Source: Alphaproteobacteria bacterium (GTDB lineage Bacteria > Pseudomonadota > Alphaproteobacteria > Rickettsiales > 21-14-0-20-44-7). From it: DNA of 64,000 bases. A program made the translations under genes and the position numbers. Position 1 is the first letter of the stretch; every line of letters begins with the position of its first letter. Where the stretch lies: the NCBI GenBank assembly GCA_043757405.1, contig JAYVPI010000001.1, positions 211,437-275,436 of the forward strand. The letters run 5' to 3'. This document shows positions 55,935 to 57,218 of this stretch, piece after piece. Below the pieces are notes generated by a model. That model was given only the letters and a program-made list of their open reading frames with translations. It searched no databases and was not told the DNA's origin.

Positions 55935-57218
55935 ATGCAAAACTTGTGGCTGCCATATTCGTTGCACAACCCCGAAAACCAGCCTTTAGAGGTGGTTAGC
56001 GCCAATGGCTGCACCCTCAAACTGGCGGATGGGCGCGAGATTATTGATGGGATTTCGAGTTGGTGGACGGTTTGCCATGGTTACAACCACCCTCACCTCG
56101 TCAAAGCCGTACAGGAACAGGCGGCGAAGTTGCATCATGTCATGCTCGGCGGTTTCGTGCATGAACCGGCGCTCAAACTTTCCGCACGCCTCGCCGCGCT
56201 CACCAAGCTCCCGCATATTTTCTTCTCCGATTCCGGCTCGACCGCCGTGGAAGTGGCGCTGAAAATGGCGGCGCAATATTGGAAGGTGCAAAATAAAAAT
56301 ACAAAAAAACAACGCTTCATCCATTTCAAAAACTCCTATCACGGCGATACGATGGGCGCGATGTCGGTTTCGGACGATGATGGGATGCACTCGCCGTTTG
56401 TTGGGTTTATGCCGATGCAATTCGCGCTGGATATTCCGTCTGACGAATTGGCTTTTGAGGAATTTGATGCGCTCCTCGCCTCACAAAAATCACAAATCGC
56501 CGCAGTCATAATTGAACCATTAGTACAAATGGCAGGCGGCATGAAATTCCACTCGCCGGATGTGCTGGCCGAAATCTACCGCATCACCAAAAAACACGAA
56601 ATCCTCTTTATCGCCGACGAAATCGCCACCGGCTTTGGCCGCACCGGCTATATGTTCGCCGTTGAGGAAGCCGGAATCACCCCCGATATCATGTGCATCG
56701 GCAAAGCCCTCACCGGCGGAATGTTAGGCATGGCGGCAACAGCGGCGAGCGCCGGAATCTTCGCCGCCTTCAACGAAACCGCCTTCATGCACGGCCCCAC
56801 CTACATGGCCAACCCCATCGCCTGCGCGGCGGCAAATGCCAGCCTGGATTTATTTGAACGCGAACCACGGTTAAAACAGGTGGCGAAGATAGAAGAAATT
56901 CTAACCGCCGAACTGGAAAAATGCGCCGCCCTGCCAATAGTAAAAGATGTACGCGTGAAAGGCGCGATTGGAGTCATACAGCTAAACTTAACCAAACCGT
57001 CATCCTGCGGCTCGACCGCAGGAGCCTCGCGAACAGATCCTGCGGTCAAGCCGCAGGATGACGTAGTTAAAGAATTACGTCAAAAATTCCTCGCCGCGGG
57101 TGTCAATATTCGCCCGTTCGATGATATAATCTATTTGGCTCCACCATTAATAATTCATGAAAAAGAGTTGAAGATATTGACCGATAAGGTCTATAACATA
57201 CTTCATGAACACAAATAA
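55935..57218 (+). CDS. bioA: Adenosylmethionine-8-amino-7-oxononanoate aminotransferase
   Basis: Contains [11 protein letters not shown] and the PLP-Lys context CIGKALTGG. Length is 427 aa. Confidence 0.9.
56999..57062. repeat. GTCATCC...GGATGAC element inserted in frame in bioA
   Basis: GTCATCCTGCGGCTCGACCGCAGGAGC...GATCCTGCGGTCAAGCCGCAGGATGAC encodes [21 protein letters not shown]. Confidence 0.85.

Follow-up and report, generated by a model that had tools for sequence, protein, structure and literature searches.

How a near-palindrome comes to lie in frame within bioA, a housekeeping gene of biotin synthesis, is the question raised by a 64,000-nucleotide (nt) stretch of an alphaproteobacterial contig (GenBank assembly GCA_043757405.1, contig JAYVPI010000001.1, positions 211,437 to 275,436), which we analysed at its full length and refer to as the window. 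An original prediction, made from the letters alone, had described a palindromic in-frame insertion in bioA at 56999–57062; the palindromic sequence is there as claimed and, with its terminal C and G, covers 56998–57063. We identify it as an HH dimer (tags outside) of two CGTC-tagged REP hairpins, also described as Ssn-related motifs (SRMs), that behaves like a Rickettsia palindromic element (RPE). This identity is secure and makes the element an ordinary example of a known phenomenon. As for its origin, we consider it very probable that it is a non-autonomous selfish repeat inserted into the part of bioA that encodes a probable surface loop. The gene and the parts of the element are the following.

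55935–57218, plus strand: bioA, adenosylmethionine-8-amino-7-oxononanoate transaminase, 427 amino acids (aa), assigned by PRK05964, TIGR00508, the PDB and an AlphaFold2 model.
56998–57063, 66 nt, in frame at residues 356–376: the bioA element, an HH dimer of two CGTC-tagged REP/SRM hairpins with tags outward.
56998–57029, plus strand: left SRM, with tag CGTC (56998–57001), stem 57002–57010 / 57016–57024 and loop CTCGA (57011–57015), followed by the tail.
57025–57036: non-palindromic spacer GCCTCGCGAACA between both hairpins.
57033–57063, minus strand: right SRM CGTCATCCTGCGGCTTGACCGCAGGATCTGT, with a 9-bp stem (57037–57045 / 57051–57059), loop 57046–57050 and tag 57060–57063.

The full near-palindrome, CGTCATCCTGCGGCTCGACCGCAGGAGCCTCGCGAACAGATCCTGCGGTCAAGCCGCAGGATGACG, has 26-nt arms that are 96% complementary to each other, and as RNA it is predicted to fold at -52.6 kcal/mol (z = -11), with none of 200 shuffles folding as well. 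Within each arm lies a smaller hairpin of its own, with an 8–9-bp stem and a 5-nt loop: eight perfect pairs and one A.G on the left (an 8-nt perfect inverted repeat), and a 9-nt inverted repeat with 100% complementarity on the right. Both arms start with CGTC (on the right as the reverse complement of 57060–57063), other copies in the window having either CGTC or TGTC. The stem, ATCCTGCGG / CCGCAGGAT, begins with AT, the two loops read CTCGA and CTTGA, and the tails read CC(T) and C(TG), compared to a 3-nt CCA consensus; tail sequence varies, and many copies elsewhere have GGATCCA.

This is the anatomy of the CGTC-tagged REPs defined by Di Nocera, De Gregorio and Rocco (2013, BMC Genomics 14:522; PMC3733652), which consist of an unpaired CGTC (or TGTC/CCTC) tag, an 8–9-bp stem starting with AT, a 4–5-nt loop and a 3-nt CCA tail. 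HH dimers predominate among them, they occur mostly in Alphaproteobacteria including Micavibrio, and some are intragenic, with dimers encoding 20–30 aa (PMC3733652). The bioA element shares their tag, a 9-bp stem from AT, 5-nt loops (CTTGA/CTCGA) and the HH arrangement, has a tail of variable sequence, and appears most like the CGTC-3 and CGTC-4 types, but neither its stem, CCTGCGG, nor its host gene is in the published tables. Both of its arms also match, in opposite orientation (56998–57029 on the plus and 57033–57063 on the minus strand), the published SRM search pattern HGTCWYN(0-2)YYVSBRHN(0-5)WNVSBRGN(0-2)RNCYNB (Chenal 2025), and its layout parallels that of the Neisseria NTS, CGTCATTCCCGCGMAVGCGGGAATCYRG. 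The NTS and its generalization, the SRM, are bound as single-stranded DNA (ssDNA) by the GIY-YIG nuclease SsnA, of roughly 94 aa (PMC11893778; Chenal 2025, Nat Commun 16:2388). Ssn enzymes, as shown for those from Neisseria and Wolbachia, cut only ssDNA, a few nucleotides upstream of the motif; the ssn gene, which is small and codes for a single-domain GIY-YIG protein (cd10448), is typically flanked by its motif, and the motif is spread across phyla (PMC11893778). The published family, the hairpin within each arm and the TGA stops in the other phases (see below) are what the original prediction overlooked.

Comparison with orthologues identifies the segment as an insertion. Alignment with E. 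coli BioA places window residues 350–381 opposite E. coli 370–379, leaving about 22 extra residues in the window protein and agreeing with the ten or so bridging residues that the original prediction had given for the E. coli enzyme. In the closest orthologue with an empty site (P0002; 401 aa, 78% aa identity), which is cleanly without the segment, the strand runs directly into the helix, and the DNA alignment with its gene (L116, at 72.5% nt identity) leaves a clean gap at precisely the position of the element. Most of the 120 other, best-matching BioA homologues also lack it, and in the 121-sequence alignment all internal insertions of at least 9 aa fall at one site, the loop occupied by the element.

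The host gene itself looks functional. Its open reading frame (ORF) scores 524 bits with PRK05964 (cutoff 494) and 507 bits with TIGR00508, both NCBIfam models being over their curated cutoffs, and a PDB search returns solved BioA structures at E values of about 1e-106. Counterparts of E. coli Y17, Y144, D147, R253, K274 and R391, located through the offsets of the E. coli alignment, are present and invariant, or nearly so, across the alignment; their functional roles we take to be those of established BioA knowledge and of the mutant structures among the structure matches. An AlphaFold2 model built from a 73-sequence alignment reaches a predicted local distance difference test (pLDDT) score of 90.8 and a predicted template modelling (pTM) score of 0.91, and Foldseek superposes it on E. 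coli and M. tuberculosis BioA with a template modelling (TM) score of about 0.89. Residues 356–370 have a pLDDT below 50 and form a coil between strand 345–350 and helix 373–387. The model thus predicts a normal BioA fold with intact catalytic residues and the insert as a low-confidence coil. Because the catalytic residues are present and the predicted fold is normal, bioA appears to be functional, and its insert, of about 21 probably floppy residues, has the look of a tolerated surface-loop excursion; the reading frame around it is unbroken.

The bioA element belongs to a family dispersed through the window. The 13-mer core of its arm, allowing up to two mismatches, has 15 matches compared to 1.4 expected, and the SRM pattern has 12 compared to 0.1 expected from 50 dinucleotide shuffles. 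A scan for inverted termini of the form GTCAYY...RRTGAC finds eleven elements in 64 kb, of which those within long ORFs lie in dnaE, era, a TrmB-like gene, lnt, a BioF-family gene (hereafter bioF) and bioA, so that six housekeeping genes in the window carry in-frame palindromic copies. As the original prediction had stated, the dnaE, trmB and lnt genes, each with a related element, lie on the minus strand, and bioA lies on the plus strand; the TrmB-like gene matches the TrmB model at an E value of 2.8e-30, slightly under the curated cutoff. All dimers found in the window have their tags outside. Besides the bioA element, the members and their relatives are the following.

34699–34764, 66 nt, outside any long ORF: HH dimer of the bioA-element family.
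42659–42733, 75 nt, in frame in dnaE (minus-strand gene): HH dimer of the bioA-element family, matching the SRM pattern.
44398–44475, 78 nt, within a 180-aa ORF that matches no family: related CGTC dimer, stem CCCCGCA/TGCGGGG.
49993–50046, 54 nt, in frame in the TrmB-like gene (minus strand): dimer with almost no spacer and one decayed arm, matching the SRM pattern.
51575–51660, 86 nt, outside any long ORF: related CGTC heterodimer.
53346–53420, in frame in lnt (minus-strand gene): related heterodimer with stem CCTCGGG/CCCGAGG and a different right arm.
53763–53835, 73 nt (not a multiple of 3), between lnt and bioF: dimer of the bioA-element family.
61509–61537, minus strand: single SRM CGTCACCCCGCACTTGTTGCGGGGTCTGG, matching the SRM pattern.

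One further SRM-pattern match, at 10177–10206, is AT-rich and has no hairpin; it is probably due to chance and was disregarded. Eight of the 12 pattern matches in the window are intragenic, compared to 28 of 141 at the loci of other genomes.

The way in which these copies are read accounts for the strand symmetry of their peptides. In dimers whose length is divisible by 3, phase 2 has no stops on either strand, whereas phase 1 is always closed by the TGA of the terminal GGATGAC and phase 0 meets a TGA where the loop is CTTGA. As only one phase is stop-free both ways, the same peptide, SSCG..TAG...DPAVKPQDD, appears in genes on either strand. The symmetry that the original prediction had noticed therefore holds, the reverse complement giving a matching peptide in the same phase; the lnt copy belongs to a different subfamily, whose peptide ends in DPRVKPEDD. 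The intragenic copies of the SSCG subfamily measure 54, 66 and 75 nt. Among the copies of any kind that lie outside long ORFs, some measure 73 and 86 nt. The length of the bioA insert is also divisible by 3, and its reading phase is the one without stops in either orientation.

Relatives of the element are widespread. Among GTDB representative genomes, more than 115 stretches match the 25-nt arm GTCATCCTGCGRCTYGAYCGCAGGA exactly. They come from Alpha- and Gammaproteobacteria, Omnitrophota, Anaerolineaceae, Muiribacteriota and Thermodesulfobacteriota, at least six phyla overall, and include Marinicella meishanensis, which is cultured, and the complete chromosome of a Marinicella. That an identical arm is shared across phyla, with a cultured isolate and a closed chromosome among its carriers, suggests that the unit has spread horizontally and does not merely reflect errors of binning. 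The common layout elsewhere is an arm, a variable spacer and an inverted arm, and among the loci L001–L115 the right arm often has a stem unlike that of the left (heterodimers). At two loci (L048, 3029–3388; L077, 1590–1950), arms identical to those of the window stand about 335 nt apart around a 104-aa ORF that matches Pfam GIY-YIG at E values of 1e-15 to 1e-16, the two proteins being 72% identical to each other. The ORF enters the right arm, which supplies the C-terminal GSCGQAAG and the stop codon (the TGA of GGATGAC). This is the published SRM-ssn-SRM architecture, and an ssn-like gene followed by an SRM-like arm also occurs in L080, a Micavibrio-like metagenome-assembled genome (MAG) related to the window. 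When searched against the PDB and NCBIfam, the L048 protein retrieved nothing beyond designed WRAP-T proteins and, below threshold, a model for a group I intron endonuclease; no named Ssn entry was among the matches.

Because identical arms enclose a GIY-YIG gene elsewhere, the 54–92-nt dimers look like internally deleted, non-autonomous derivatives, and the short dimer in bioA is most likely such a derivative of an SRM-ssn-SRM unit. We propose that the dimer arose from, and was spread by, a unit of this kind, with Ssn binding the hairpin in ssDNA and an HH dimer receiving one cut just outside each end, one per strand. The copy in bioA would then persist as a near-neutral insertion whose peptide is translated and not removed, frame-breaking or buried insertions being purged. 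We infer this Ssn-dependent, ssDNA-mediated spread from the architecture of the units and from published biochemistry.

Several observations weigh against this proposal. To our knowledge, transposition of SRMs or CGTC REPs has been demonstrated by nobody. Neither a regular-expression search nor tblastn finds an ssn/GIY-YIG gene in the 64-kb window, the weak matches being the translated arms themselves, and inspection of the junctions of the elements by eye shows no target-site duplication and no conserved target sequence. The CGTC REPs were described as having no dedicated transposase (PMC3733652), and the insertion sequence (IS)-like architecture of SRM units is put forward as a hypothesis only (PMC11893778). 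Inserts at the same loops of BioA and DnaE with perfectly paired yet different stems could also mean that the hairpin is under selection.

The nearest relatives of the window that we retrieved are alphaproteobacterial and Micavibrio-like MAGs at 62–83% identity. In the 81%-identical BioA P0001 (gene L117), an HH dimer occupies the loop that holds the bioA element of the window and is read in the same phase; its stems, CCTCGGG/CCCGAGG, differ from those of the window by five fully compensated pair swaps and only one mismatch. P0003 and P0005 (roughly 70% identical; L118 and L119) have an arm of the Neisseria NTS type, TGTCATTCCCGCGCAGGCGGGAATCCAG, in the same loop and in another phase (CHSRAGGNP), and owing to the different subfamily and phase we count it as a separate event. 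P0018 has a decayed hairpin at this loop. The original prediction had named the presence of the segment in unrelated BioA sequences as evidence against an insertion; inserts do occur in the same loop of other orthologues, but they belong to other repeat subfamilies and are no conserved BioA feature. At the same site, the orthologues P0004, P0007, P0023 and P0010–P0016, which have no recognizable element, carry short acidic stretches (KEDD, EEEDT); these are akin to the ...QDD end of the insert peptide and might be remnants of partly deleted inserts or a coincidence.

DnaE presents a similar picture. In the dnaE gene of L082, from a Micavibrio MAG, one dimer agrees with that of the window in loop, phase and arm orientation, at 62% identity over the segment, with two compensated swaps and a nearly identical right arm, and DnaE of L025 and L039 has no insert. 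The L082 gene (3177–6836) contains three in-frame SRM dimers, all read in the SSCG...DPAIKSQDD phase and with a common spacer, whose similarity was equalled in none of 2,000 shuffles. Between window and L117, the bioA spacers are unrelated (p 0.59), and between window and L082 the dnaE spacers are weakly similar (p 0.017). The spacer comparison argues against simple vertical inheritance and is not decisive between one ancient and repeated insertion. Elsewhere in the window, inserts of other types in bioF and thiC, described below, are missing from syntenic orthologues at 75–83% nt identity, indicating quick lineage-specific turnover. We read the recurrence at the same loops as repeated insertion, or whole-element replacement, in the few loops that tolerate about 20 extra residues. 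The occupation of the same BioA and DnaE loops by different element subfamilies across lineages is mildly new, and the sole aspect of this locus that goes slightly beyond the literature that we consulted.

The recurrence could instead mean that the intragenic dimer is an old and selected element, inserted once in each loop (bioA, dnaE) and kept for a role of the DNA or RNA hairpin or of the protein loop. As a target of Ssn it might modulate how the gene recombines or is transformed; it might be a site for an RNase, or for ribosome pausing, between structural elements of BioA; or the loop might simply be useful to the protein. Compensatory change, or gene conversion by other copies, would keep the stems of the hairpin paired. 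We regard this as unlikely. The shared loop and phase in bioA of the window and L117, the shared loop, phase and orientation in dnaE of the window and L082 despite 62% protein identity, the weak similarity of the dnaE spacers (p ~0.02) and the altered transformation rates of Neisseria with NTS-gene-NTS configurations (PMC11893778) all speak for it, as would the compensated swaps in both genes (five and two), with their single mismatch in bioA. However, compensated swaps are no evidence alone, because the stems of any two subfamily members differ in this way by construction. Moreover, the bioA spacers are unrelated, the same-site dnaE copy of L082 has a spacer typical of the dimers of L082 itself and common to its two other dnaE copies, pointing to re-insertion or replacement on the spot, and P0003 and P0005 hold a different subfamily in a different phase. 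The 78%-identical BioA and most other homologues have no insert at all, and the bioF and thiC inserts are not common to syntenic relatives.

Two further explanations concern whether there is a translated insertion in the first place, and both seem highly improbable to us. The 63 nt might be removed from the mRNA or the protein in the manner of an intron or intein, leaving a mature BioA of normal length, and the very stable RNA hairpin would be a conceivable processing site; yet Rfam, scanned at gathering thresholds over the whole window, reports one tRNA only and no family at the element, 21 residues are far too short for an intein, and there are no intron features. In addition, all intragenic copies are multiples of 3 in a stop-free phase, which is the signature of required translation, and RPE-1-bearing proteins of R. 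conorii are expressed in vivo, according to evidence cited in PMC3733652. There is just as little to recommend an assembly artefact or a native hypervariable loop of BioA. The loop is indeed the only length-variable internal site among the 121 BioA sequences, but its DNA in the window typifies a dispersed repeat family, of which 12 copies lie in the window, independent metagenome assemblies have sister elements in the same loop, and the flanking frame is unbroken.

Another idea is that particular loops of housekeeping proteins (the one between strand 345–350 and helix 373–387 in BioA, and that in DnaE) are re-occupied, or stably held, by the current SRM subfamily of a lineage, and do not merely reflect random landing and survival. 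We hold this to be doubtful. If true, it would imply either that the machinery of Ssn-driven insertion prefers certain targets in a homing-like way or that selection preserves a perfect hairpin in coding DNA, and the open phase on either strand would have evolved in the family as a trait compatible with coding. Should same-loop occupation turn out to reflect targeting or selection, the way in which such repeats move could be studied well in this lineage.

Read as a selfish repeat, the element compares with known systems as follows. In-frame CGTC elements with peptide signatures like those of the window are already listed in the supplementary table of PMC3733652; they include the R. conorii CGTC-4 peptide DTVVKPRCD in dnaE and CGTC-1 peptide CHSRESGNP in trmB, an element in S. 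alaskensis lnt, R. palustris CGTC-3 dimers such as SCPGLSRASTPSSTEGKDVDGRDKPGHD, and the R. palustris CGTC-3 signature SCPGLSRAS...DGRDKPGHD. R. conorii RPE-4 is CGTC-4 and RPE-6 is CGTC-1 (PMC3733652), and the window peptides fit the CGTC-4 (RPE-4) type DxxVKPxxD, although the host is not of the genus Rickettsia by its nearest matches. The high intragenic share in the window resembles the situation in Rickettsia. RPEs are reportedly in-frame repeats in many unrelated housekeeping genes and tolerated by the proteins; the classic RPE-1 type is about 100–150 bp long and genus-specific. The window elements are likewise palindromic, in frame in protein-coding genes and, in the BioA model, compatible with the fold. 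In contrast, the NTS of N. meningitidis are 2% intragenic and clustered near surface-protein genes (PMC11893778), whereas most copies in the window are in frame in housekeeping genes, with no ssn gene within 64 kb. In outline the system resembles REPIN/RAYT, where a non-autonomous unit is likewise built from two inverted REP hairpins with a spacer, and where the nuclease that acts on ssDNA comes from a small single-copy gene with the same hairpins on either side. REPINs are said to have a GTAG tag and an HUH/Y1 transposase. We rejected membership in that system, as the tag is CGTC and the flanked gene at L048 and L077 encodes a GIY-YIG protein.

As a single instance the locus has small weight: bioA and an uncultured Micavibrio-like alphaproteobacterium join the genes and taxa with in-frame CGTC-REP/SRM dimers. 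As material, the window offers a very high intragenic fraction and clear pairs of filled and empty orthologues, and together with the SRM-ssn-SRM units it links the CGTC REPs that lacked a known transposase (2013), the Ssn nucleases (2025) and the selfish DNA within Rickettsia genes.

The window also contains palindromes of other kinds. A second type of element, CGTCATTCTGAGCGCAAGCGAAGGATCCTTCGCTTGCGCTCAGAATGACG, consists of near-perfect palindromes of 48–50 nt and occurs in era, in bioF and once outside any long ORF.

23072–23120, in no long ORF: second-type palindrome.
40125–40174, in era: second-type palindrome.
54450–54499, in bioF: second-type palindrome.

Their ends, CGTCAT/ATGACG, are like those of SRMs, but their halves form no hairpins of the SRM pattern, and the era and bioF copies were not counted as SRM members as they do not match it; read in frame, they encode VILSASE(G/R)SFACAQ(N/D)D. 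The bioF copy is missing from the syntenic orthologue in L117. A 30-nt mini-palindrome, CGTCATTGCCGCGCTTCGCTCGTAATGACG, lies in the same gene at about 54036–54065 on the minus strand, with a peptide resembling the R. conorii CGTC-1 peptide DSRFRGND, and bioF thus has two repeat-derived segments. In thiC, an unrelated G/C-rich palindromic insert at 57667–57760 (...CCTCCTCCCTCAGGGAGGAGG...CCCTCCCTCAGGGAGGGG..., RNA fold -58 kcal/mol) adds about 20 residues to a variable loop of ThiC and is missing from ThiC of L117 and L118.

Two CGTC-ended elements of 94 nt, at 20983–21076 and 23922–24015, have longer composite arms, GTCATCCTCG..CGGGGATCCAGGG, and lie in opposite orientation about 2.8 kb apart around a tRNA (22267–22348) and three ORFs; they could form a composite unit or merely be two separate copies. 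Another inverted-repeat family, made of TCGTTGATCGTT / AACGATCAACGA units and unrelated to SRMs, occurs at 22391–22460 and 46944–47025, with arms of 30–33 nt that are 79–87% complementary.

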